DNA of 64,000 bases from an uncultured Actinomycetes bacterium (GCA_963704885.1 CAVPIB010000004.1:1072793-1136792), one strand, 5' to 3'; positions 4,779 to 64,000 are shown, counted from the first letter of the stretch. Numbers and translations: made by a program. Notes: a model not told the origin generated them from the sequence alone.

Positions 4779-5617
4779 CACCTGGCCACGATGTCGTCGT
4801 ACGCGTCGGGCCGACGGTCGCGGTAGAACGCCCAGCGGTCGCGAACGGCGCGGATCTTGTCCAGGTCCAGGTCTCGCACGATCAGCTCGGGCTTGTACGC
4901 GTCTGCGGGCTCGCCCACGAACTGCCCCTCCGGATCGACGAAGTAGCTCTGCCCGTAGAAATCGTTCTCGCCCAGCGGTTCGATCCCGACGCGGTTGATC
5001 GCACCCACGTAGTACATGTTCGCGACCGCGGCGGCCGGCTGCTCCAGGCGCCAGATGTACTCGGAGAGCCCGCGATGCGTTGCCGACGGGTTGAATACGA
5101 TCTCGGCGCCGTGCAGGCCGAGCATGCGCCACCCCTCGGGGAAGTGGCGGTCGTAGCAGATGTAGACACCGACCTTGCCGACGGCCGTCTCGAAGACCGG
5201 GAACCCTTCGGTCCCGGGCGTGAAGTAGAACTTCTCCCAGAAGCCCTTCACCTGGGGGATGTGATGCTTGCGGTACTTGCCCAGGTAGGTGCCGTCGGCG
5301 TCGATCACCGCGGCGGTGTTGAAGTACTGGCCCGCCTGCACGATCTCGTACATCGGCAGCACGAGCACCATCCCCAGTTCCTTAGCGACGCTCTGGAACC
5401 GCTTGGTGGTCGGCCCGTCGGGGATCGGCTCCGTGTAGCTGTAGTACTCCGCGTCCTGAACCTGGCAGAAGTACGGCCCGTAGAAGAGCTCCTGGAAGCA
5501 CATCACCTGAGCGCCCTGGGCGGCGGCGTCTCGGGCGGCTTCCTCGTGCTTGTCGATCATGGACGCCTGGTCGCCCGACCAGTCGGTCTGCAGCAATGCG
5601 GCCTTCACGGTGGTCAT
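4778..5617 (-). CDS. Nitrilase-family carbon-nitrogen hydrolase (beta-ureidopropionase-like)
   Basis: Catalytic triad motifs CFQELF, YRKHHIP, YICYDRHFPE; FWEKFYF; GGAG upstream of ATG 5617. Confidence 0.9.
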   Translation of the reverse strand: MTTVKAALLQTDWSGDQASMIDKHEEAARDAAAQGAQVMCFQELFYGPYFCQVQDAEYYSYTEPIPDGPTTKRFQSVAKELGMVLVLPMYEIVQAGQYFNTAAVIDADGTYLGKYRKHHIPQVKGFWEKFYFTPGTEGFPVFETAVGKVGVYICYDRHFPEGWRMLGLHGAEIVFNPSATHRGLSEYIWRLEQPAAAVANMYYVGAINRVGIEPLGENDFYGQSYFVDPEGQFVGEPADAYKPELIVRDLDLDKIRAVRDRWAFYRDRRPDAYDDIVAR

Positions 5618-8981: not shown

Positions 8982-10292
8982 TCAGCGACGACGTTGAGGT
9001 TGGCGCGTCGCCTGCGGCTGACGGTTGCCGCGACCATTGGATCGGGGTCTGGGGCGTGGAGTCGCCCCTCGATCGGGGCCATCCGCGTTTCCCATCCCGG
9101 CGTCGCGCCATTCGGCGTGCAGGTCGAGCTCGTTCGCGATCCTGCGAACGTCAGCCCGTTGGTCGGGCATCACGAACGTGATGCCCTCTCCCCCGCGTCC
9201 GGCTCGCGCCGTGCGACCAACCCGGTGAACGTACGCCTTCCCGTCCTCGGGCGGATCGAAGTTCACCACGTGCGTGATGTGCTCCAGATCCAGGCCGCGA
9301 GCGGCGACATCTGTGGCGACCAACACGTCGTTGCGACCCCTGGCGAACTGCGCGAGAGCGCGGTCGCGCTGCGGTTGTGACATGTTTCCGTGCAACGCAC
9401 CCGCGCTGAACCCCTGCTGCGTCAACCGCTGCTTCAAGCGGTCGGCGCCGCGCTTGGTCCGCACGAACACCAGTGTCAGTCCGCGGTCTGCGGCGAGCTC
9501 GCGCACCAGCGTGGAGACCTTGTGCTGGTGCTCCACCGCGATGAAGCGGTGGTCAGCCTCCGTCACCACCGGGCGTGGATCGTCGATCTCGTGCAGGACG
9601 GGCTCGATCGTGAACTCCTTGGCGAGGCGTCCCACCTCGCCATCGAGCGTCGCGGAGAAGAGCATGGTCTGACGACCGGTAGGCAGCTGCTCCAAGATCC
9701 TTCGGACGTCGGGCAGGAACCCCATGTCCAGCATGCGGTCGGCCTCGTCCAGCACGCAGATGCGCGCCTTGTCCAGGCGGAGCATCTTGCGGCCCAACAG
9801 GTCGAGCAAGCGGCCCGGTGTCGCGATCACGACATCGGCGCGGCGCGCGCGCTTCGCCTGGTCGTGCATCCCGACGCCGCCGTAGACGGTCGCGATCTGC
9901 ATCCGGCGCACGTCGGCGATCGCACGGAACTCCTCGGCCACCTGACTGGCCAGCTCGCGCGTAGGGACCAGGATCAGGGCCTTCGGGCTGCGGCCGTCGG
10001 GCTGGATCCGTTCCACGATCGGCACGGCGAACGCGAGCGTCTTGCCCGAGCCCGTCCTCGAGCGCGCCAGCACGTCGCGCCCGGCGAGCGCGTCGGGCAG
10101 CACGAGCGCCTGGATCGCGAACGGCGCGGTGAAGCCGCGCATCGCGAGCGCCTGGGCGACCGGCCGAGAGACGCCGAGCTGGTCGAACGACGCGAGGGAC
10201 GGGTCGGCGGCCTGCTGAACCGCGGGCGCGGTAGGTCTGGGTGCGTCGCGTCGGGGCGTGTTGCGACGGTGTTCGGTACGGGTGGTGGTCAA
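8982..10292 (-). CDS. DEAD-box RNA helicase (RhlE-like)
   Basis: Q motif, TGSGKT, PTRELA, TPGRL, DEAD, SAT, ARGLD, HRVGRTAR. Confidence 0.95.
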   Translation of the reverse strand: MTTTRTEHRRNTPRRDAPRPTAPAVQQAADPSLASFDQLGVSRPVAQALAMRGFTAPFAIQALVLPDALAGRDVLARSRTGSGKTLAFAVPIVERIQPDGRSPKALILVPTRELASQVAEEFRAIADVRRMQIATVYGGVGMHDQAKRARRADVVIATPGRLLDLLGRKMLRLDKARICVLDEADRMLDMGFLPDVRRILEQLPTGRQTMLFSATLDGEVGRLAKEFTIEPVLHEIDDPRPVVTEADHRFIAVEHQHKVSTLVRELAADRGLTLVFVRTKRGADRLKQRLTQQGFSAGALHGNMSQPQRDRALAQFARGRNDVLVATDVAARGLDLEHITHVVNFDPPEDGKAYVHRVGRTARAGRGGEGITFVMPDQRADVRRIANELDLHAEWRDAGMGNADGPDRGATPRPRPRSNGRGNRQPQATRQPQRRR

Positions 10293-54095: not shown

Positions 54096-54359
54096 ATGAG
54101 TGATGACGTGGCGCAGCTCTCGAGCCGAGGGACCGTGACCCTGCCCGCCGGCCTCCGGCGGGAACTCGGTCTGTCGGAGGGCGACGTGCTCACCGTGCGG
54201 ATCGTGAACGGCGCGATCGTGCTGACCCCCGCCGTCCTCACCGAGGTGGAGGCCTACACGGACGAGCGGATCCGGGAGTTCGAGGACTCCGCGAAGATGA
54301 ACGAGGACGAGCTCCGGGCGGCGCGCCGTGCGTGGCGCGTCACGCACCCGAGCACGTGA
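54096..54359 (+). CDS. AbrB/MazE-type antitoxin
   Basis: SSRGTVTLPAGLRRELGLSEGD...IVLTP. Confidence 0.9.
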   Translation: MSDDVAQLSSRGTVTLPAGLRRELGLSEGDVLTVRIVNGAIVLTPAVLTEVEAYTDERIREFEDSAKMNEDELRAARRAWRVTHPST

Positions 54360-54857: not shown

Positions 54858-55088
54858 ATGGAGGAAGGGGTGGCCCGGACCTACCGGGCCGACCGGATCG
54901 AGGTCACGTGGGCTCCCCGGCTCTGCATCCACGCGGGCGAGTGTTTCGGCAACGCGCCTGAGGTCTTCGATCCGCGCGCTCGCCCGTGGGTCCGGCCCGA
55001 GGCCGCGCATCCCGACCTGATCGAGGAGACGGTTCTGCTCTGCCCGAGCGGCGCCCTGGGGTTCCGCCGCCTCGACGGCTCAGGTTAG
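54858..55088 (+). CDS. Divergent 4Fe-4S mono-cluster protein (YjdI-like)
   Basis: CIHAGEC...PEVFDPRARPWV...CPSGAL. Confidence 0.85.
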   Translation: MEEGVARTYRADRIEVTWAPRLCIHAGECFGNAPEVFDPRARPWVRPEAAHPDLIEETVLLCPSGALGFRRLDGSG

Positions 55089-55405
55089 GCGCGGATACCG
55101 AGCGCGTACCGGAGGGCCCCGTCGAGCGAGACCAGCTCGAGCGGCGTGAGGCGGCCGATCGGCCGGGTGCCGAGCAGCGCCTTCGGGATGGTCTGGAGAG
55201 TGTCGCAGTTCGCGACCGACGCGGCGCGCAACCCGTGGGGACGGCCGAGCGGCAACTCGCTCGGGATGCGCCGGATGGTCCTGGTCACCGGGGCGACCGT
55301 GATCGTCGTACGCACGCCGAGGACGGCTGAACGCGTCACCACGACGACGGGCCGGCGACCGACGGGTTGGGGGAGCCGCGCCCAGTAGACCTCACCCCGG
55401 CGCAC
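55085..55405 (-). CDS. mazF: PemK/MazF-family toxin
   Basis: RGEVYW...GRRPVVVVTR, APVTRTIR, ANCDTLQTIPK. Confidence 0.9.
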   Translation of the reverse strand: MRRGEVYWARLPQPVGRRPVVVVTRSAVLGVRTTITVAPVTRTIRRIPSELPLGRPHGLRAASVANCDTLQTIPKALLGTRPIGRLTPLELVSLDGALRYALGIRA

Positions 55406-55408
55406 GGC

Positions 55409-55648
55409 TCAGGCGTCCGGCCAGGCAGCGACCCGCGCGAACGCCTCGACCTCTGCGGGGTCCTCCGGTACCTCTAGATACGCGCGGATCGTGCGCGCGT
55501 CCCATGCAGCCTCGCGCCCGGCGTCGAGATAAGCACCCAGGGCCTCACGGATCAGCTCGCTGCGGTTCCGCTCGAGCGCATCGGCTGCGGAATCGAGTCG
55601 CGCGATCAGCTCGTCATCGAGCTGCACCAGGACCTGCCGCCGGGCCAT
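55409..55648 (-). CDS. Ribbon-helix-helix (CopG-like) antitoxin
   Basis: QVLVQLDDELIARLD...NRSELIREAL. Confidence 0.88.
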   Translation of the reverse strand: MARRQVLVQLDDELIARLDSAADALERNRSELIREALGAYLDAGREAAWDARTIRAYLEVPEDPAEVEAFARVAAWPDA

Positions 55649-55660
55649 CGGGAGAACCCT

Positions 55661-55682
55661 ACCATATGAGATAACATATGGT
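55661..55682. promoter_or_regulatory. Palindromic operator of RHH-MazF pair 2
   Basis: ACCATATG-AGATAA-CATATGGT adjoining minus-strand -10 TAGGGT (55656-55661). Confidence 0.72.
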
Positions 55683-55792
55683 CGGCCCAGCCGCCGTGAT
55701 CATCGTCACGCTGGCGGCTCGTCCAGCGACCGTGTGGCGGTGTCGGTAGCGAAGGAAGCGCTCTGCGGGATCCGCTGACCTGCCACGCGTGC

Positions 55793-55814
55793 ACGTTAGC
55801 GGGAACCACTGACA
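55793..55814 (-). promoter_or_regulatory. RecA-NDp (PafBC-type) promoter
   Basis: TGTCAGTG-GTTCCCGC-TAACGT, matching tTGTCRgtg-N8-TAnnnT. Confidence 0.72.
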
Positions 55815-55827
55815 GACCGGGTCGGGG

Positions 55828-56538
55828 TCAGGTCTCGCACCCGATGCCGGTGTGGTCGCCGTCGAAGTTGTGGGGGTCGGGCGGCAGGACCTGGAAGTGC
55901 CGGAACGAGATGTCCGCGCAATCCAGATCGGGCGGCGGAGGAGGGATGCACACGCCCGGATACGCGGGATCGCACCGATGTCCGCCGCCGCCCACACCCG
56001 GGCACGCGCCCCACAGCCCACGATCGTGCTCGCGCGCGACCCGCTGCGCGGCGGTGAACACGTCCACGTAACGGACGTTCGGCGGGTACGTGTCGACCAC
56101 GGCGTAACCGCCCGCCACCAGCCGCCGGTTGAACAGGTGCCCTCGCAACCAGACGTAGGCGAGCGTCCGCCCGTACCGGTCGAGCCGCTCCACGTCGAAC
56201 TCCAGCCGCACGGTGCGACCGGTGAGCGCACGCTCGGTGAAGCGCGACGCCTGCTCGCCGTAGCACTGGACGGGCTGCGAGGGGTCGACGGTCTCGGGCG
56301 TGTCGATGCCGATCAGCCGCACGTCCAGGTCGTTCCCACGGAACGTCACATGGATCGTGTCCCCGTCGACGGTCCGGGTGACGACCGCCGGTTCGCCCGG
56401 CGTGCGGAGGCCACCACTACCGTCGGAGGCCGCGGAGGACTCAGGCGCCGTGGGCGTGCCCGCCGGTCCCGACCGCCCAGACGAGCACCCCGCCAACAAC
56501 AGGACCAGTGCGACGACCAACGACCGTCGGGCGTTCAT
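55828..56538 (-). CDS. Thermonuclease (SNase) lipoprotein with Cys-rich Excalibur-like tail
   Basis: LAGC lipobox; VDGDTI, VRLIGIDTPE, DRYGRTLAYV, GLWG; tail CDPAYPGVCIP..DLDC...FDGDHTGIGCE. Confidence 0.92.
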   Translation of the reverse strand: MNARRSLVVALVLLLAGCSSGRSGPAGTPTAPESSAASDGSGGLRTPGEPAVVTRTVDGDTIHVTFRGNDLDVRLIGIDTPETVDPSQPVQCYGEQASRFTERALTGRTVRLEFDVERLDRYGRTLAYVWLRGHLFNRRLVAGGYAVVDTYPPNVRYVDVFTAAQRVAREHDRGLWGACPGVGGGGHRCDPAYPGVCIPPPPPDLDCADISFRHFQVLPPDPHNFDGDHTGIGCET

Positions 56539-56677
56539 GCCGGCGCAGGTGCCTCCGTCGGCGCCTCCGTCGGCTCCTGGCCGGCTCCTGGGCCGGCTCC
56601 TCCACGGGCAGCGTCTCGGGCACGGGGACATCGACCGGCTCGATCTCGCGGACGCGCTTGGGCTTACCGATGTTCAT
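56535..56677 (-). CDS. Small acidic Pro/Glu-rich peptide (~47 aa; probable one-base deletion near 56580)
   Basis: AAGGAGG RBS; MNIGKPKRVREIEPVDVPVPETLPVEEPAQEPA; restoring one C gives QEPTEAPTEAPAPA* with TGA overlapping the thermonuclease ATG. Confidence 0.65.
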
Positions 56678-57602
56678 GAGGTGCTCCTCCTTCTTCTACG
56701 GGGATCGACCACGGGTTCGCCGCATGCGCCCAACGATGGACGGACGACGTGTCTCGGTACGGGAGATCGTCACTCGGAGGAACGACGATCGGCGTCACTG
56801 CGACCGGTGACGCTACGGCGACGGACGGCGTCGCAGCGTCGGCCGGGCCGAACCCGAGCGCCTTCGTGACCAGGCTGAACGCGCCAACGACGAGCGCCAG
56901 GGCGAGGAGGATGAGCCCCGAGTAGGCCCAGATGAGGAACAACCCGCCGACGACCACCTTCACGAGTGACCAGACGCCGAGCGCCACCATCCTCAGGAGC
57001 TCCGCCGGATCCGACCTCATCGGTGCCGGACCGGTACGCATGCTGCGGTCGATCCGCTCGATGGGCATCAGGTCGACGCCGTAGGTGGAGAGCAGCTCCG
57101 ACTGCACCTGGTCGGCAGGCCACGAGGACCCCGCGATGCCACCTCTGTGCCGCGCGCAGACGGCCGTAAACGCACCCCCGCTGTCGATAACGCTCGTCGG
57201 ATCGACCGCGCCCTCGGCCATGTACAGGCACTGACCGCATACCAGCCGCAGGCGCGCCGGATAAGCCAACCGCGACCGGGCGCCGCGTTGGTGCTCCACG
57301 ACGGTTCCCCACATCGCGATCGCGCCGACCACGCACGTGCCAACGCCGAGGATGCCCGAGCGCGCCAGGTCCTTGGGCGTCGCTGCCGCGTAGAGCCCGC
57401 ACATGCATCCCCGGCTCGGGACCGTGCTCTCGTGGTGCAACGCACATGTCGCCTTCATGGCCTCCCCCGGAGGCCAGCCGTCGGGCCTGGTCAGCGAGAG
57501 GAGCGTGAGTACGCCGCCGATCCGCTGCAGACGCCAGGCGCGCCAGCCGAGCACCGGCTCCAGCGAGAGCGGTGGATCGGCGGGCTGGGGGGAAGTCGCC
57601 AT
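56664..57602 (-). CDS. Uncharacterised Cys/His-rich protein with C-terminal membrane segment
   Basis: GAGG RBS; GWRAW, C..HH..P..CMCGLYA, VVGAIAMWGTVVEHQRGARS, CGQC, CARH, then a long hydrophobic stretch. Confidence 0.75.
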   Translation of the reverse strand: MATSPQPADPPLSLEPVLGWRAWRLQRIGGVLTLLSLTRPDGWPPGEAMKATCALHHESTVPSRGCMCGLYAAATPKDLARSGILGVGTCVVGAIAMWGTVVEHQRGARSRLAYPARLRLVCGQCLYMAEGAVDPTSVIDSGGAFTAVCARHRGGIAGSSWPADQVQSELLSTYGVDLMPIERIDRSMRTGPAPMRSDPAELLRMVALGVWSLVKVVVGGLFLIWAYSGLILLALALVVGAFSLVTKALGFGPADAATPSVAVASPVAVTPIVVPPSDDLPYRDTSSVHRWAHAANPWSIPVEEGGAPHEHR

Positions 57603-57622
57603 GGGTACCTCTTCGGCGGGGG

Positions 57623-58379
57623 TCAGGGGAAGCGCACGAGCGCGGCTCCGTAGCGAGCGGACGGCAGGTCGGCGCCCGCACGCGTCAGGTACGCCTGCCA
57701 GAAGCGCTCGATCGTGAGGAAGCGGTCGGCGGGCAGTGACGAGCTCGCGAGCGCCCCCGCGCCAACCACGTAGACCGACACGCCCAGCAGGTTCGGGAAT
57801 CAGGCCCTCGGCAGCGAGCGTGTCGAGGGTCGGCCCGATCGCGGCGTCGTCGAAGTGCGCTCGCGCCACGTTCAGCCGGGGCGAGCGCTCGACCATGTCG
57901 GACAGGAGCACCAGGGAGCGAGCGCCCGCCTCCGGGTAGGAGTCGAACACGCGCTCGGCGAGCCCGAGCCCGTTGTGGATGTCGGTCCCGGATGCGGTCG
58001 GTTCCTGCGCCAGGATCGCGCGCGCCTGGGCGTCAACACGTTGACGCGTCCGCGTGATCCCCGCGTCGCACACGAGCTTGTTGTCGGTGAACGCGTCGCA
58101 CGCAGCGAACGTCGCGTCGATCGGATACGTCGAGTGGGCGAGCGGGTCGTCGTCGATCACGTCGCCGACGATGGTGCCGTGCTCAGCGACCACATGGTCA
58201 AGGACACGCTCGAACGCAGCGAGGTAGCGCGCACGCACGGCCGGGTCGTTCGTGCTCCGGGACACGTCGAAGAGCACGACCACGAGCGGGCCGGGCTGCC
58301 CACTACCGGTCACCGCGCGTACGGCCGAGCACCCGGTCAGCGCCAACAGGCACAAGAGCACCGCCAAGGAGCGCCTCAT
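57623..58379 (-). CDS. Lipoprotein with VWA/MIDAS-like domain (extra base near 57796)
   Basis: LTGC lipobox; VVVLFDVSRS (DxSxS), GTDI, LVLLSDM; corrected frame ends IERFWQAYL...LVRFP*. Confidence 0.75.
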
Positions 58380-59479
58380 GCGACGTGCACCGCCTTCAGC
58401 GCCGGCTCTGCGAGCTCCTCCGGCACGGCGATCACCGGCAGCTCGCGCAGCACCGCCGGGATCTCGGGTAGCCGCCGCGCGCGCAGGTTCGCCGCGCAGT
58501 ACACCGACATCTGCCCTCGGTAGTAGGCGACCAGCCCGGCGGTTCGGGCGCGTGCCACGCGGAGCAGCTCGTCGCGCGCGACGTCCGCGTTCCCTAGCGC
58601 CTCCTCGTGCCGGTGGACGGCACGCGTCGCCTCGGTCAATCGCCGCTTGGCGTCGGACAGCTCCATCCGCGCGGCCTGCGTCGGGCTCACCGGATCCGCC
58701 GCCTTCCGCGCGGCCGGACGCGGTGCGTGCGCCAGGTAGGAGAGCATCGTCGTGCCCGTGTAGATCAGCAGGTTGATCACCAGGAACACCAGGCTGCCAA
58801 CGACCGGCCCGAGCACGTTCAGCCCGGTGACCGCGGCCTCCATCGACAGGTAGCGCGCGCGGATCAACGCGATCCCCACGAGCGCCAGCACCGGCACCGC
58901 GATCAGGATCCAGATGAACCGCCGCTCGGCCATCGTCGGCTGCTCCAGCCGCAGGAACGTGCCCAGGCCGTGCGCGCACACCACGAGCATCACCGCCAGG
59001 CCCGCGGTCATCACCCACGTGAGGACCTCCGCCTCGCCGAACAACCTGAACGCGATCGCGTTCAGCGGGAACTCGGCGAGCAGGATCGCGACGATCGCCG
59101 CTACGTAAACGCGCGTCGAGATCCGCGCGCCGGCAGGCGTCGGCGGCGCGAGCACTAGTTCCTCGCGATGCGCGTCCAGCGCGCGCCGCCGGTCCTGCGC
59201 CTCGGTGACGTCGACGTTGGCGTTCCGCACATCCTCCTCGGAGGTGCGCAAGCCATACGTGTCGGCGCCGGAGCGTTCGCGCAGACGCGCGTCCTCACCG
59301 GCCCACCATCGGATCAGCTCGGCGACGGCCTCGTCGGCCCGCTGCGCGATCGCCATCAACGCCGGCGGGTGCGCGACCTCGTTCGTGGTCGGGATGCCGA
59401 GCTGACCGTCGCGCTTGCCGTCACGGCGAGCCCGCACGCGGTCGCGGAGCCGGCCGAACGCACCAGGGGGAACCTGCAT
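58376..59479 (-). CDS. Uncharacterised membrane protein: coiled coil / 4 TM / coiled coil
   Basis: GGAGG RBS; four central hydrophobic segments flanked by charged helices; C-terminal YCAANLRAR; stop overlaps next ATG. Confidence 0.8.
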   Translation of the reverse strand: MQVPPGAFGRLRDRVRARRDGKRDGQLGIPTTNEVAHPPALMAIAQRADEAVAELIRWWAGEDARLRERSGADTYGLRTSEEDVRNANVDVTEAQDRRRALDAHREELVLAPPTPAGARISTRVYVAAIVAILLAEFPLNAIAFRLFGEAEVLTWVMTAGLAVMLVVCAHGLGTFLRLEQPTMAERRFIWILIAVPVLALVGIALIRARYLSMEAAVTGLNVLGPVVGSLVFLVINLLIYTGTTMLSYLAHAPRPAARKAADPVSPTQAARMELSDAKRRLTEATRAVHRHEEALGNADVARDELLRVARARTAGLVAYYRGQMSVYCAANLRARRLPEIPAVLRELPVIAVPEELAEPALKAVHVA

Positions 59480-59498
59480 AGGGGGAGCCTCCAGTTCC

Positions 59499-59547
59499 GA
59501 GGACGTCCCTCCGCCGGACGACCGGCGGAGCAGGGGGTGACGTCCTC
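59499..59547 (-). other. Long stem-loop in the 5' leader of the five-gene operon
   Basis: GAGGACGTC(59499-507)/GACGTCCTC(59539-547) enclosing CTCCGCCGG-ACGA-CCGGCGGAG. Confidence 0.65.
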
Positions 59548-59556
59548 TCTGAAGTC

Positions 59557-59578
59557 AAGGTACGCAAGGGCTCTGACA
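59557..59578 (-). promoter_or_regulatory. RecA-NDp (PafBC-type) promoter of the five-gene operon
   Basis: TGTCAG-AGCCCTTGCG-TACCTT. Confidence 0.72.
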
Positions 59579-59593
59579 CGAACGGGTGTTCGA
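59578..59593. promoter_or_regulatory. LexA SOS box (actinobacterial consensus)
   Basis: ACGAAC-GGGT-GTTCGA versus consensus TCGAAC-N4-GTTCGA. Confidence 0.72.
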
Positions 59594-59785
59594 GCCCGTT
59601 CGGTACCTGTCTTCACATGGCCGCGCGTTGTGATACCTGGCGGCCGAGAAGTATCACGAGGTGTCTAGAAGCGATCCAGCCACCGGAGCACACGGGCCAA
59701 CTGGCTCCTCGTCATGAGCGTGCGCGCCGCGCCGAACCGAACCCTTAGGGCGCTCCATGGCTCTCTCTCCATCAGGCTTCCGAAG

Positions 59786-60079
59786 TCACGGACCGGGTCG
59801 ACTCCCGGCGATCGAGAGCTCTTCACCGATGGCGAGGGCGAAGCGCTCGACGGTCGAGATGCGCGGATCGCTCTCACCACCTTCGAGGCGGGCCAGGGCG
59901 GACTGCGAGGTCCCCATCCGCGCAGCAACCACGGTTTGGCTGAGTCCGCGCTCGCCACGCCGTCTCGCAAGCTCTTTGATCAGAGCGCGGGCTCGGGTCG
60001 CAGCCTCGACCATGACCGGGAACTCGGGGTTCGCTCGGGTCCGCTCCTCGACAACCTCGTCCAACAGGTCCTTCGTCAT
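59786..60079 (-). CDS. XRE-HTH antitoxin (HigA-like)
   Basis: GLSQTVVAARMGTSQSALARLEGG..PRISTVER; GGAGG RBS. Confidence 0.88.
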   Translation of the reverse strand: MTKDLLDEVVEERTRANPEFPVMVEAATRARALIKELARRRGERGLSQTVVAARMGTSQSALARLEGGESDPRISTVERFALAIGEELSIAGSRPGP

Positions 60080-60125
60080 GTCCAGCACCTCCAGGATGGC
60101 ACTCTCTCATAGCGCATAAGAGATA

Positions 60126-60491
60126 TCAAGTTCGAGATACCGACCGGGACCTCCAGTCGCGCAGGCGCCGCTCAGCGAGTTGGATCGTCCGAGGCGGAGT
60201 CTTCTGCGACGTCTTCGCGAAGGCCTCGAGCGCCAACAAGATCTGGGCGCGACGACCCTCGGTTGCGAACAGGACTCGATAGGCGGCGCCATCGCCAACC
60301 ACCCTCACCTCGTAGATGTCGCCGTGCAGATGGCGAGCTCCCGACAGCCCTTCGACAGCAACTTCGCGCATCGCTACGACCACGGCTGCGGCGTCAGCGT
60401 CCGACAGCGTGCGGATGAAGTCCCGCACCGGACGATGGCCCGCACGCGTCGTGTAGTCGCGCCATCGCCGCCAGGTCGGGAGGTTGCTCAC
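60126..60491 (-). CDS. RelE/ParE-family toxin (HigB/Gp49-like)
   Basis: YTTRAGHRPVRDF, HLHGDIYEVRV, YRVLF, FAKTSQKTP; toxin lies upstream of HTH antitoxin. Confidence 0.88.
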   Translation of the reverse strand: MSNLPTWRRWRDYTTRAGHRPVRDFIRTLSDADAAAVVVAMREVAVEGLSGARHLHGDIYEVRVVGDGAAYRVLFATEGRRAQILLALEAFAKTSQKTPPRTIQLAERRLRDWRSRSVSRT

Positions 60492-60591: not shown

Positions 60592-62285
60592 TCAAGGGTC
60601 GAGAGATCCGATAGGGGCGATCGATCGCGAGTTGCCATCGAGCCAGTCGCGGATCGCGAGCGTGGCCTCGACGTCGCCTCGGTTGTACGTGAGGAGCCAG
60701 TCCCGAGCCGCCAGACGCTCGGCCTCTGAGGACGACGAGCCGGCCGCGACCTCGTAGAGGAGCATCGACTCCTCGCCACCGGGATCGTCGACCTCCCAGG
60801 TGTATCCCGCGAGCGGAGCCACCACCTTCAGGCCGCTCCCTCCGCCGGTGATCAGCTGGCTGTCGAAGACGCGCAACATGTCGACCCAATCATCCGAGAC
60901 GATGAACGCCTCCACTTGGTCGAGCACCTCTCCCGTGATGCCCAGCTTGCGGAGGTACGTGTTCTCCGCCGCCGCGTTGTAGCAGTACGCGCGGAACGTC
61001 TGGCCGGCCGCGTGCGCTCCCGCGCGGATCGCCATCAACCAGTTCCAGAACTCCAGGAAGTTCGACGTCTGGACCTCGGGACCCAGCGGATCCCACGTCA
61101 CGAACGGCCGGTAGCGCCCGATCGGCGCAGGCATCGCCGATCGGTCGGTGAGGAGCGCTCCCCACAGGTACACGCCATCTTCGACGTTCTCCATGTCGAC
61201 ATCCACCTCGATGTCGCCCCTGGGGACCACGATCGCGCCGACCCCACGCCGCCGGTAGACGGGATCGGGTCCGAGCGCGGCTCGCGCCTGATCGATCTGC
61301 TCGGGGAGCGAAGACATCCCGGAGTCCGATGCGGTGCGGAGGTCGAGCGCGGCGAGCGCCGCGCGGTCGGTCACGCCGTGATCGTGGTGGATCTTCCACT
61401 CGCGCCAACCGATCCGAGGGAGCAGGCTGACGTCACCCGAGCCTGCTTCGAGCTGCGGGCGGCAGTGGTCCCACCACGGACACTCGGCACACTCCGCAAG
61501 CTTCACCGGCACGACGAGCAGCTCCACCCCCGGGTCGACCAGGTGCTGTTGCGCGACCGCGATGATGTCGAGTCGGAAGTCGAACTCGAAGTCGTAGACC
61601 TCCATCGTCGTCCGCATCTTCTGGGTGCCGGACGAAGACGGGGTCCGCCACATCGGCGCATCGAGGTCGTGCCACACGATCCGGCGCTCGACGCCGATGA
61701 TCCCGCCATGTCGGCCATCACCCGCGGCGACGCCGGCCGCCTCCAACATGCGCTGGTAGTGCGCGAGCTGGAGAAGGTCCCCTTTGTGCTTGCGCACGCG
61801 AGTGGTGTCGTCCGTCTCCGCGTCCTCGAACGCCGGCCGAGCGAGCTCCGAGCACGTGCTGCGGGAGACTCCGCGGCTCCGCTGGCTCGAGCGCCATATG
61901 GTGCTTGATGTCGACGGGTCGATATCCGCCACCGGGTGCAGCGACCAGGAGGTCCGGCTTGCCCACCCTCCTGCCGGTCGCGTCGCTCGGCAGCCGTCCA
62001 CCGAGGATCAGCGGGGATCCCGCCGCGATCGCCGCGGATGTCGCGACCTCGAGCGCGGCGGAGTCGGCGCCCTCCACGGTGATCGTGTCCGGATGCAGTT
62101 GGCGAAGGTCGGCGACGATCTCGGCCTCGAACAGACGCCCTCGCTCGGAATCGTCGTTCGAGGACAGGCGATGGAGAGATCGGCTCAGCAGGGCCGAGCG
62201 CGTCGTTCTGCGCGCGCACCGGACACTGCTTGGCGACGTAACCACCCTGGAGTGGCACGGACGAGATGTCGTATCGCGTCGTCAT
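60592..62285 (-). CDS. TM0106-family RecB-like nuclease with RNase H-like C-terminus (frameshifts near 62145 and 61855)
   Basis: GKPDLL..YRPVDIK, QLAHY, KQC + [31 protein letters not shown] across three frames. Confidence 0.8.
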
Positions 62286-62337
62286 TTGGCCCTCCGCGGG
62301 AAGACTACGGGAGCTGAGCGAGAGTACGCGCGCACGC

Positions 62338-62359
62338 TGTCGGGGCGGCAAGGTAGATT
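62338..62359 (+). promoter_or_regulatory. RecA-NDp (PafBC-type) promoter, leaderless, of the R-M gene
   Basis: TGTCGG-GGCGGCAAGG-TAGATT, 7 nt before ATG 62367. Confidence 0.75.
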
Positions 62360-62366
62360 CCGGGTC

Positions 62367-64000
62367 ATGCCTCCTTCGAGGACGTTCCTCGCCAATCGTG
62401 TTGGCGCGCGTCCCTGGAAGGTCCCGGATGGTGGGAGGGCCGCGTTCGAGCCGGAGGGTCTCTACCTCGGTAAGGGTGACAACGCTCTTCAGGTGGCGAT
62501 CGCGCAGTCGAAGTCGAAGCCGAACGTCCAGGACATCAGGAACCTGTGGGAGCGTCGGCAGAACAAGGGGGCCAGCCCACTCCTCCTTGTGGTCACCTAT
62601 CAGGGGCCAAGCGGTCCCCAGGCCATGGCGTGCGGACCGGCGGGCGAGCGGCCCCCGGTTACGCCAACGCTGGAACCCGGGCATCTTGAGCGGATCGCCG
62701 CCGCTGCTCTGGAGGAGCCCAATCGTCATGCCGCTATCCGCCTTCTGAACGTCGCTCTGCCCGATGCGCAATCCGATCTCCCAGGCATCCGGAACAACGG
62801 CATGTTTGCCTCCCACGAACTTCGTGCCGGGGTGCCGCTCAGGCAAGACTGGGCAGTAGCAACCGAGGCGTCCAAGCCGTTGCTGACGAAGCACGGCAAG
62901 CCGCTGGTCGAGAGTCTTGGCTACACCGTTGAGCCACGAGGAACGTCAGCGTCGCTCCTTCGTGCGGGCGAGACCGCGACTGCGATCGCAGTGTTCCTCG
63001 AAGAGAGCGAGACTCCAGAAGCTCCATCTCCGCGCTTCAACGGGCTCTCTCCGGTGTCTCAGGCGTTCGCCGAAGCGGACAAGGACCGATTGCCTTGGGT
63101 TGTGGTCACTCGCGGTCCTGAGATCCGGGTGTACTCGACCAACCCAGATGTCGGGGTCGGGCGCAAGGGGCGCTCGGAGACCTTCATCGGTATCAACTTC
63201 TCGCTCCTCCCGGATGACCGGGCCGGATACCTCTCGCTGCTCTTCGGCTCCGAAGGACTCCAACCGGGGGGTTCCTTCGAGCAGATCCTCGAACGCTCGA
63301 AAGACTTCTCTGCCGGGCTCGGAGAGCGACTTCGCGAGCGAGTGTATGTCGATGTCATCCCCGGACTGGCTGAGGCGATCGCCACGCGCTATGAGTTCGA
63401 TGAGACCGCCACCGATGCAGAGCTGGACTTCGTTTACCAAGCCTCTCTAGTCCTGCTCTTCCGCCTCCTCTTCATCGCCTATGCGGAGGACAAGGGTGTA
63501 TTGCCCTACCAACGCAACGGGATGTACGACCACCGGGCGCTGAAGACCCTTGCGCGGGAGTTCGCGCATCGAATCAACGAGGGCACCAAGGAGTTCGACG
63601 AGGAAGCCACAGACCTGTGGCAGCAGGTCAGGTCGCTCTTCAACGCGGTGAACGAGGGCAACTCGGACTGGGGGGTGCCTCCGTACGACGGAGGACTCTT
63701 CTCAAACGACCAGGTTGTTGAGGAGTCAGGCTACGAACTGGACAGCATCGAGCCGCTCACCAACGCGGAGCTTGGACCTGCCCTGTCAGCGTTGCTGGTC
63801 GATAAGGGTGACGACGGCGTTCTCGGCCCGGTCGATTTCCGCAGCCTCTCCGTCCGCGAGTTCGGCACGATCTACGAGGGTCTCCTCGAGTCCAACCTGT
63901 CGATGGCCGTGACCGATCTGACCCTCGACAGGAGCGGGACCTATGTGCCCGCCAAGAAGGAGCAGGCGGTTCACGTAGAGAAAGGCACCGTCTATCTGCA
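62367..64000 (+). CDS. Type IIG-like restriction-modification enzyme, N-terminal part (runs off window; absent from ORF track)
   Basis: Open frame [11 protein letters not shown]...; [50 protein letters not shown], motifs that normally precede the N6-adenine MTase domain. Confidence 0.82.

Follow-up and report, generated by a model that had tools for sequence, protein, structure and literature searches.

A five-gene operon on the minus strand of a 64-kb stretch of DNA (hereafter the window), taken from contig C4 of the high-GC actinobacterial genome of an uncultured Actinomycetes bacterium (3.0 Mb in 20 contigs), encodes a module of membrane-associated proteins headed by predicted DNA-damage control sites. 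We consider it very probable that this module is real, conserved and co-regulated, and that the LexA and PafBC sites in front of it are genuine. Judged from gene order across related loci, the first four genes (g1–g4) are the conserved core, and the fifth (g5), which encodes a staphylococcal-nuclease-type (SNase) lipoprotein, is optional. As to what the module does, we advance a more tentative proposal, which we rate as slightly short of an even chance: that it is an accessory, damage-induced and tightly gated envelope effector built around g3–g4 and conserved in a family of uncultured actinobacteria.

The coding signal between positions 55828 and 59479 of the window lies on the minus strand throughout and is read as five genes (Table 1). 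The start of g2 at 58379 overlaps the stop of g1 in an ATGA, 20 nt separate the g2 stop at 57623 from the start of g3, and the g4 ATG at 56677 produces a 14-nt overlap with the end of g3. A first-pass annotation of the window had described this same arrangement, with five co-oriented genes, ATGA joins, a 20-nt gap and a 14-nt overlap, and all of these features were seen on the minus strand. It had also held that a 784-aa open reading frame (ORF) was an artefact that concealed the operon, and inspection of the reading frames confirmed this: the frame at 56664–59018 is truly open, but it is composed of an off-frame overlap with g1, followed by g2, a frameshifted stretch and g3.

We collected 22 homologous loci from 21 other genomes and searched them with the window proteins. 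Fourteen of these carry g1–g2–g3 in the same order on one strand, which bears out the conservation of gene order that had been put forward as a check of the operon; in five more the contig stops after g1 or g2, two are rearranged and one is a remnant. In a further 11 loci from metagenomes, g2 follows g1 in all seven that extend far enough, and g3 follows g2 in four of five. Of 294 genomes of the class, 22 gave a g1 match, all belonging to one family and distributed over 8 of 78 genera. The window and locus L036 share 45% identity in g3 and 91% in g1, and L082 shows the reverse pattern; with the relative divergence of g3 and g1 differing by locus in this way, the module is mosaic.

Control region and leader RNA

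The LexA box TCGAACACCCGTTCGT is found 100 nt before the start of g1, in a composite site (59557–59593) that reads TCGAACACCCGTTCG-TGTCAG-N10-TACCTT. The box fits the actinobacterial SOS box consensus tCGAAC-N4-GNNCGa, as quoted in part of PMC9380542, and TGTCAG-N10-TACCTT fits the PafBC motif tGTCgg(N10)tA(N3)T, which an excerpt of PMC8635444 presents as a hybrid promoter without a -35 element. A LexA core together with a PafBC motif was observed upstream of g1 in all six genome loci and all six metagenome loci with enough upstream sequence, with TGTCAC in place of TGTCAG in L045 and L091, and more loci match both elements by pattern search. The LexA and RecA-NDp sites that the first-pass annotation had placed at the head of the operon thus match their consensus sequences and are kept in 12 of 12 loci.

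Elsewhere in the genome, both motifs also precede repair genes. The core CGAAC-N4-GTTCG, with 10 specified bases, is found 23 times in the 3.0-Mb genome, compared with approximately 3 occurrences expected from composition, and its sites include those of lexA (two boxes), recA, the dnaE2 operon, a PcrA/UvrD-like helicase and a DEDD exonuclease. For the PafBC pattern, 31 occurrences were counted, compared with approximately 10 expected, and it precedes dnaN, a helicase gene, the dnaE2 operon, the proteasome ATPase gene, yraN and yifB; two adjacent WYL-domain (pafBC-like) genes lie near the proteasome ATPase gene (G000, C4:239896–241066). By sequence, and with the leader conserved as well, the predicted DNA-damage control of the module is well supported in silico. 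A scan of 55400–59800 for sigma-70 promoters and intrinsic terminators returned none, a result that says little in an actinobacterium of high GC content.

Dual control by LexA and PafBC is documented for mycobacterial genes, as described in part of PMC8223512, and the region studied here shares with them an SOS box and a 22-nt PafBC motif without a -35 element, in a genome that also contains lexA, recA and a pafBC-like pair. It differs from them in that the predicted targets are membrane-associated proteins of unknown families rather than repair genes, and in that the LexA box runs straight into the -26 element and a conserved structured leader follows. The same LexA box/TGTCAG composite is present outside the window, on contig C7 of the same genome (around 269829–269842), where it precedes a cytoplasmic VWA gene. 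A homologue of this VWA gene in L049 (Pfam VWA, 2.9e-15) is followed by a gene for a protein in which a g3-like domain is fused to a DSP phosphatase.

In the outermost helix of the leader (helix 1), 5' CUUC/CCUC pairs with the GGAGG ribosome-binding site. A covariance model of the leader, built from 19 sequences, was searched against 288 kb and gave 26 matches, of which 24 lie upstream of g1 (or of g2 in L052). Paired bases occupy 80.6% of cells, compared with 36–49%, and never more than 48.8%, when the partners are slid; compensatory changes are seen at 16 of the 23 pairs, including 7 of the 9 in helix 2, and the covariation score was reached by none of 500 shuffles. On this comparative evidence, helices 2 and 3 are solid. 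Scanning the leader against Rfam identified no family and nothing near threshold. Locus L052 contains two copies of promoter and leader (5133–5217 and 9138–9222), one before g1 and one before g2.

Two weak matches to the leader model (19.9 and 21.1 bits) were also recorded. The former, at L049:8037–8131, may represent a related leader, being placed after a PafBC-like motif and before the cytoplasmic VWA gene of that locus; the latter, at 54114–54197 of the window, falls within the gene for a MazE-like antitoxin and probably arose by chance.

Table 1. Positions of the operon genes, the control elements and the flanking toxin-antitoxin pairs in the window.
Feature	Position	Strand	Description
g1	58376–59479	minus	367 aa, polytopic membrane protein
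g2	57623–58379	minus	VWA/MIDAS lipoprotein, one extra base near 57792
g3	56664–57602	minus	312 aa, Cys/His domain and hydrophobic stretch
g4	56535–56677	minus	small acidic Pro/Glu-rich peptide, C missing near 56579
g5	55828–56538	minus	exported staphylococcal-nuclease-type lipoprotein, optional fifth gene
Structured 5' leader	59480–59556	minus	three stacked helices between the -10 element and the g1 start
PafBC-type (RecA-NDp) hybrid promoter	59557–59578	minus	TGTCAG (-26)-N10-TACCTT (-10)
LexA (SOS) box TCGAACACCCGTTCGT	59578–59593	minus	abuts the PafBC -26 element
Toxin-antitoxin flank 1	PemK/MazF 55085–55405, RHH 55409–55648		family scan
Toxin-antitoxin flank 2	Gp49/HigB-like 60126–60491, HTH 59786–60088		family scan

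Proteins of the module and the g3–g4 pair

The g1 protein contains hydrophobic segments at residues 126–144, 152–170, 188–206 and 222–240, flanked by charged N- and C-terminal regions, and its soluble ends vary among relatives. Polar residues of the membrane segments are invariant (E136, N140, E149, H170, R177 and H251) or, in the case of R145, nearly so. We found 148 relatives of g1, none of them named, and the ESM Atlas gave unnamed clusters only. No match to g1, g3 or g4 was obtained in the Pfam, NCBIfam, PADLOC or PHROG models, and a profile search against solved structures returned only chance-level matches, to designed propellers.

The second protein, g2, carries the lipobox LALTGC and the MIDAS residues DVSRS, GTD and SDM, and its first 199 residues match Pfam VWA_2 at 18.5 bits (E 0.0033), compared with a cut-off of 27. 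Across 15 homologues, DVS.ST, GTD and SDM vary little or not at all, and the lipobox and a cysteine pair are also kept. The module is reminiscent of VWA membrane operons of the Bat and TerY types, in which a MIDAS-bearing VWA protein is encoded with membrane proteins, and VWA genes are found repeatedly alongside phosphatase genes and genes of the g3 family; g2, however, is a small lipoprotein below Pfam thresholds, and the operon contains no MoxR ATPase, kinase or PP2C phosphatase.

The g3 protein consists of an N-terminal Cys/His domain (residues 1–190), a hydrophobic stretch (204–245) and a short tail. Two groups of residues in the domain are invariant, C53, C66 and C68 on the one hand and C122, C125, C149 and H152 on the other, from which we infer two zinc sites. 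Far more widely distributed than g1, the N-domain was detected in 217 of the 294 class genomes, frequently as several copies, in 203 of 222 genomes of family f1, and in 51 of 401 genomes sampled across the phylum, with distant members matching only at about positions 10–120; these tallies include unpublished genomes (G183 and others for the class; G455, G310, G515 and G405 for the phylum). Among 1.84 billion sequences, 8762 cluster representatives match the g3 domain at E 0.001 or better.

In g4 it is the N-terminus that is conserved (MNIG.PK...EI.P...PVP), with M1, I3, G4, P6, K7, P14, P18, V19 and P20 invariant in 15 sequences. In the window, the ribosome-binding site and start of g4 lie within the last codons of g3 (EEGGAPHEHR), implying that the two genes are translationally coupled. 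The peptide gene adjoins g3 in the window and in 15 loci, with the order g2–g4–g3 in L060 and L063, and five of these loci lack g1–g2 (L035, L038, L039, L040 and L042). Since g4 adjoins g3 even where g1 and g2 are absent, g3–g4 is a cassette in its own right, and the acidic peptide belongs with g3 rather than with the nuclease. At the level of genes, the pair has the traits of a type II toxin-antitoxin system: the two genes are adjacent and coupled, one product is small and acidic, and they recur together and on mobile elements.

A search of phage and plasmid collections with g3 itself (tblastn) gave no match, and the same search with a distant member of the family identified genes in five Streptomyces phages. 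Both phage loci that we inspected contain a g3-like gene and, after it, an overlapping small acidic ORF, namely genes 6–7 of LuckySocke (L144:2263–3161) and gp216–gp215 of BRock (L145:1447–2327). As in g4, the acidic ORF opens with MNIG (or MDIG) and residues 13–14 are EP. These phage pairs lie close to one end of the genome, next to small hypothetical genes and a gene for an HNH endonuclease.

Structure searches with full-length g3 were swamped by its long helix, and the N-domain was therefore refolded alone, giving a model with a pLDDT of 90 and a pTM of 0.85. With Foldseek, this model matched an uncultured phage protein (E 5.3e-11, TM 0.59/0.63), a protein of Streptomyces phage BRock (E 3.9e-4) and DUF7666 proteins (E from 8.9e-4, with low TM values of 0.32–0.38); the ESM Atlas gave no usable match. 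Going by the predicted model, the clearest structural relatives of the g3 domain are viral proteins without known function, including DUF7666. The resemblance to DUF7666 and related viral proteins lies in the predicted fold and in the Streptomyces phage genes found by tblastn with a distant member of the family, but the TM values are low, none of 49 g3-family members matches the Pfam DUF7666 model at E up to 10, and DUF7666 itself has no known function and no mention in the literature searched.

Genes of the g3 family are repeatedly found beside, or fused to, genes for EAL domains, a VWA protein of the cytoplasm, phosphatases of the DSP type and a fragment of ARPP-1. The DSP-type domains, which are of the rhodanese-phosphatase superfamily, were located at L033:5435–6001, L035:7233–7751, L036:3453–3938, L045:9010–9990 and L049:9454–11304, and in L036 and L094 a gene with such a domain lies just upstream of the g1 promoter.

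Proposed role and competing readings

In the envelope effector that we propose, LexA would block the promoter as long as DNA is intact, and, having no -35 element, the promoter would also be silent without activated PafBC. Upon damage, LexA would be cleaved, and PafBC, activated by single-stranded DNA, would recruit RNA polymerase, with the outer helix of the leader over the ribosome-binding site acting as an additional, translational gate. The products would then assemble at the membrane. There, g1 would probably be oligomeric, its conserved polar membrane residues suggesting a channel-like or catalytic core; g2 would form a metal-dependent adhesion module on the outer face; and g3 would join a cytoplasmic zinc-binding domain to the membrane, with g4 bound to that domain as its partner or its brake. 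In the face of damage or infection, an effector of this kind would halt growth or division or reshape the envelope, and the nuclease, where present, would be an extracellular add-on. Three layers of repression, together with a patchy, mosaic and phage-shared distribution, suggest that the effector is costly or toxic.

An extended form of this proposal, which we think unlikely, is that g3–g4 is a new two-gene cassette common to actinobacteria and phages, in which a zinc-bearing domain is held in check by a tiny acidic peptide, and that it is wired here to a channel-like g1 and a VWA lipoprotein and released on damage through LexA, PafBC and the leader. It would then constitute a new class of SOS effector, acting by abortive arrest or envelope remodelling, together with a new cis-regulatory RNA.

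If these predictions are borne out, the module brings membrane and envelope proteins of wholly uncharacterised families into the damage response of actinobacteria, whose known members are mostly repair genes, and offers testable handles in the form of a composite promoter, in which a repressor site abuts an activator site, and a conserved leader RNA that may gate translation. Large as the g3 domain family is, the copy of Pfam searched holds no model for it, and the PDB gave no match at a Foldseek E value of 0.001 or better. Uncultured lineages are the only known carriers of the full module, and the presence of g3–g4 in Streptomyces phages means that the pair can be studied in cultured hosts.

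Several observations weigh against the envelope effector reading. No g1 match was obtained in 272 of the 294 genomes of the class, and its absence from most relatives indicates that the module is not a core damage function. Both rearranged loci depart from the conserved order: g3 is divergent in L044, and L052 has a 3-kb insertion between g1 and g2 and no adjacent g3. Because g1, g3 and g4 have no characterised relatives, every functional step of the proposal has to be inferred. The hydrophobic stretch of g3, approximately 42 residues long, fits a single membrane crossing as well as a hairpin, so that a Cys-rich C-terminal domain could lie inside or outside the cell. The leader alignment was itself fitted to the model, and helix 1, which covers the ribosome-binding site, is the weakest of the helices, with 61% of cells paired. 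Finally, the copy in the window has frame breaks in g2 and g4 (Table 1), and its g3 is without the Cys-containing C-terminal domain of about 79 aa found in relatives of 370–390 aa.

These defects in g2, g3 and g4 form the core of the best-placed alternative, that the copy in this genome is the remnant of variable-island cargo, pseudogenised and in decay, in which the frame breaks are real mutations and the genes have no present function. We treat this as a serious possibility, on the doubtful side. The residues missing from g3 are held by its closest relatives, and in the tail region a related metagenome contig has 537 nt compared with 300 nt in the window. The g2 gene forms a single frame in L034, L041, L044, L045, L049, L081, L082, L086, L087, L089 and other aligned homologues, and g4 as it stands is a 78-aa ORF (56441–56677), its homologous peptides having 41–70 aa. 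An adjoining RecB-like gene (60592–62245, minus strand, with an RNase_H_2 tail) is likewise split, into frames 61718–62245 and 60592–62001. The assembly holds 52 ORFs of at least 1000 aa, and with long ORFs this common indels are evidently not everywhere. The patchy distribution of g1 is also in keeping with decay.

Other observations speak for assembly error instead. The second VWA gene of this genome, on contig C7 and under the same composite promoter, is also split between frames, and several frame breaks typical of assembly indels occur in the module genes of the related metagenome-assembled genomes L036, L055, L057 and L094; moreover, the window has kept its control region and leader whole, with a sequence that hardly differs from that in relatives. 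A search for sequencing runs that contain the stretch listed a single DNA run (5% of sampled words) and no RNA run; aligned at 85% likeness, the DNA run yielded only diverged relatives, with a depth of 2.4 in the bin of the g2 break and a diverged, gap-rich alignment over g4. This copy is either mis-assembled or decaying. The first-pass annotation had itself named cargo of a decayed mobile element as its alternative: the patchy spread (22 of 294 genomes), the toxin-antitoxin-rich setting and the frame breaks agree with it, but a scan of 18 neighbouring proteins found no integrase or transposase family, and the module is intact and conserved elsewhere.

A further alternative is that the module, or g3–g4 alone, is the lineage's damage-induced checkpoint of cell division or of the envelope, acting like ChiZ (Rv2719c), YneA, DivS, SidA and DidA and unrelated to them, a reading that we judge distinctly unlikely. 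The known checkpoint inhibitors are damage-regulated, membrane-anchored proteins of a similar general layout. As predicted for the module, their regulation involves a WYL activator or a LexA switch, the Caulobacter inhibitor didA being driven by a WYL-domain activator according to part of PMC9186387. The commonness of the g3 domain in family f1 fits such a role, and PafBC-like motifs precede some loci with g3 only (L032, L033 and L035; the L033 neighbourhood rests on the unpublished genome G183). Yet g1–g2 occurs in only 22 of 294 genomes, and the multiple copies of g3, its faster divergence than g1 (45% versus 91% identity to L036) and its phage homologues are traits of a conflict gene rather than of a housekeeping checkpoint. 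Family scans revealed no similarity to known division inhibitors, and the module, in contrast to them, has four components, shares no LysM or other domain with them, is patchy, multi-copy and fast-evolving, and has g3–g4 relatives in phages.

The first-pass annotation had seen a five-gene operon ending in a nuclease, and had proposed a membrane complex, expressed upon DNA damage or infection, that would break down or block nucleic acid, whether incoming or extracellular. Extended to defence, DNA scavenging or uptake, this nuclease-centred reading appears to us a slim prospect. It was right that only the nuclease has a recognisable function, g5 being the sole member of a named family above threshold: it is a bona fide SNase-family lipoprotein (Pfam PF00565, 86.5 bits compared with a cut-off of 21, 2e-24) with the lipobox LLLAGC and with DGDT, RLIGIDTPE and DRYGRTLAY, which we take to be the catalytic and Ca-binding residues of an SNase. 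The gene adjoins the g1–g2–g3 triad in two arrangements, on the same strand and downstream of it in three cases (the window, L036 and L063) and upstream of g1 in L045 and L049, as the divergent gene of a shared control region, and this recurrence argues for a real functional link. Toxin-antitoxin genes surround the module, and g5 matches the PADLOC candidate model 'SNc+LTD' at 2e-39; this match is, however, limited to the nuclease domain, and PADLOC-DB 2.0 contains no model for g1, g2, g3 or g4 at E up to 1.

On the other side, the nuclease lies beside only 5 of 15 triads (the window counted), and the fetched sequence of the other 10, several of which are short or cut by contig ends, has no nuclease match. 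In L094 a pilT gene follows g4 directly, where its close relative L036 has the nuclease between g4 and pilT. This variable adjacency marks the nuclease as an accessory gene, recurrently linked to the module but not part of its core, and, the nuclease being optional, degradation of nucleic acid is unlikely as the core activity. Colicin operons combine LexA control with a nuclease toxin, a small acidic immunity protein and a lysis lipoprotein. The operon in the window similarly brings together a LexA site, a nuclease, lipoproteins and a small acidic protein, but its nuclease is an optional, plain SNase lipoprotein without receptor or translocation domains, its acidic peptide goes with g3, and g1–g3 have no counterpart in colicin operons.

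The slimmest of the prospects is that the cytoplasmic domain of g3 is a divergent enzyme of the ADP-ribosyltransferase fold, and g3–g4 a toxin-antitoxin-like pair of enzyme and inhibitor linked to ADP-ribose processing. About 30 of the 50 best matches in an all-against-representatives structure search have this fold (among them Tpt1, DarT, the Rhs toxins TreX and TreTu, Arr, PARPs and ParT), and it turned up again in another search. Like many antitoxins, g4 is small, acidic and translationally coupled to its neighbour, and the g3 family has the DSP-type domains described above (in L033, L035, L036, L045 and L049) and one fusion to an ARPP-1 fragment. DSP-type phosphatases and ARPP are linked to ADP-ribose systems in part of PMC9503650, and a weak fold likeness, DSP neighbours, the ARPP-1 fusion and a small acidic partner are what the pair has in common with DarTG/ParST and with ADP-ribose systems that contain rhodanese-phosphatase and ARPP proteins. 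Against this reading, all of the ADP-ribosyltransferase matches have Z scores of 4.4 or below, under the noise guideline of the tool, Foldseek against the PDB gave no match at E 0.001 or better, alignment of g3 with 15 DarT sequences (hhalign) gives a probability of 0.13%, the Foldseek matches to viral proteins, including DUF7666, are clearer, and neither a macrodomain nor an ARG glycohydrolase was seen. A conserved catalytic triad of either type (R-S-E or H-Y-E) was looked for in g3 and not found, the candidate catalytic residue E103 being replaced in distant members of the family and in the phage protein.

Genomic surroundings

On both sides of the operon, the family scan identified the toxin-antitoxin pairs listed in Table 1 (PemK/RHH and Gp49/HTH), in agreement with the flanks described in the first-pass annotation, and the scan of neighbouring proteins found more PIN/antitoxin pairs close by. 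A long open frame on the plus strand (61905–63998) runs off the end of the window, and its translation, judged by eye, resembles a type IIG restriction-modification protein or a BREX-type methyltransferase. In L036, L041, L057 and L094, the module adjoins a PilT-like gene and lies near Sir2-like and DSP-like genes (PilT and Sir2 assigned by eye). This shared neighbourhood of the relatives suggests a preferred insertion site that is distinct from the toxin-antitoxin island of the window.

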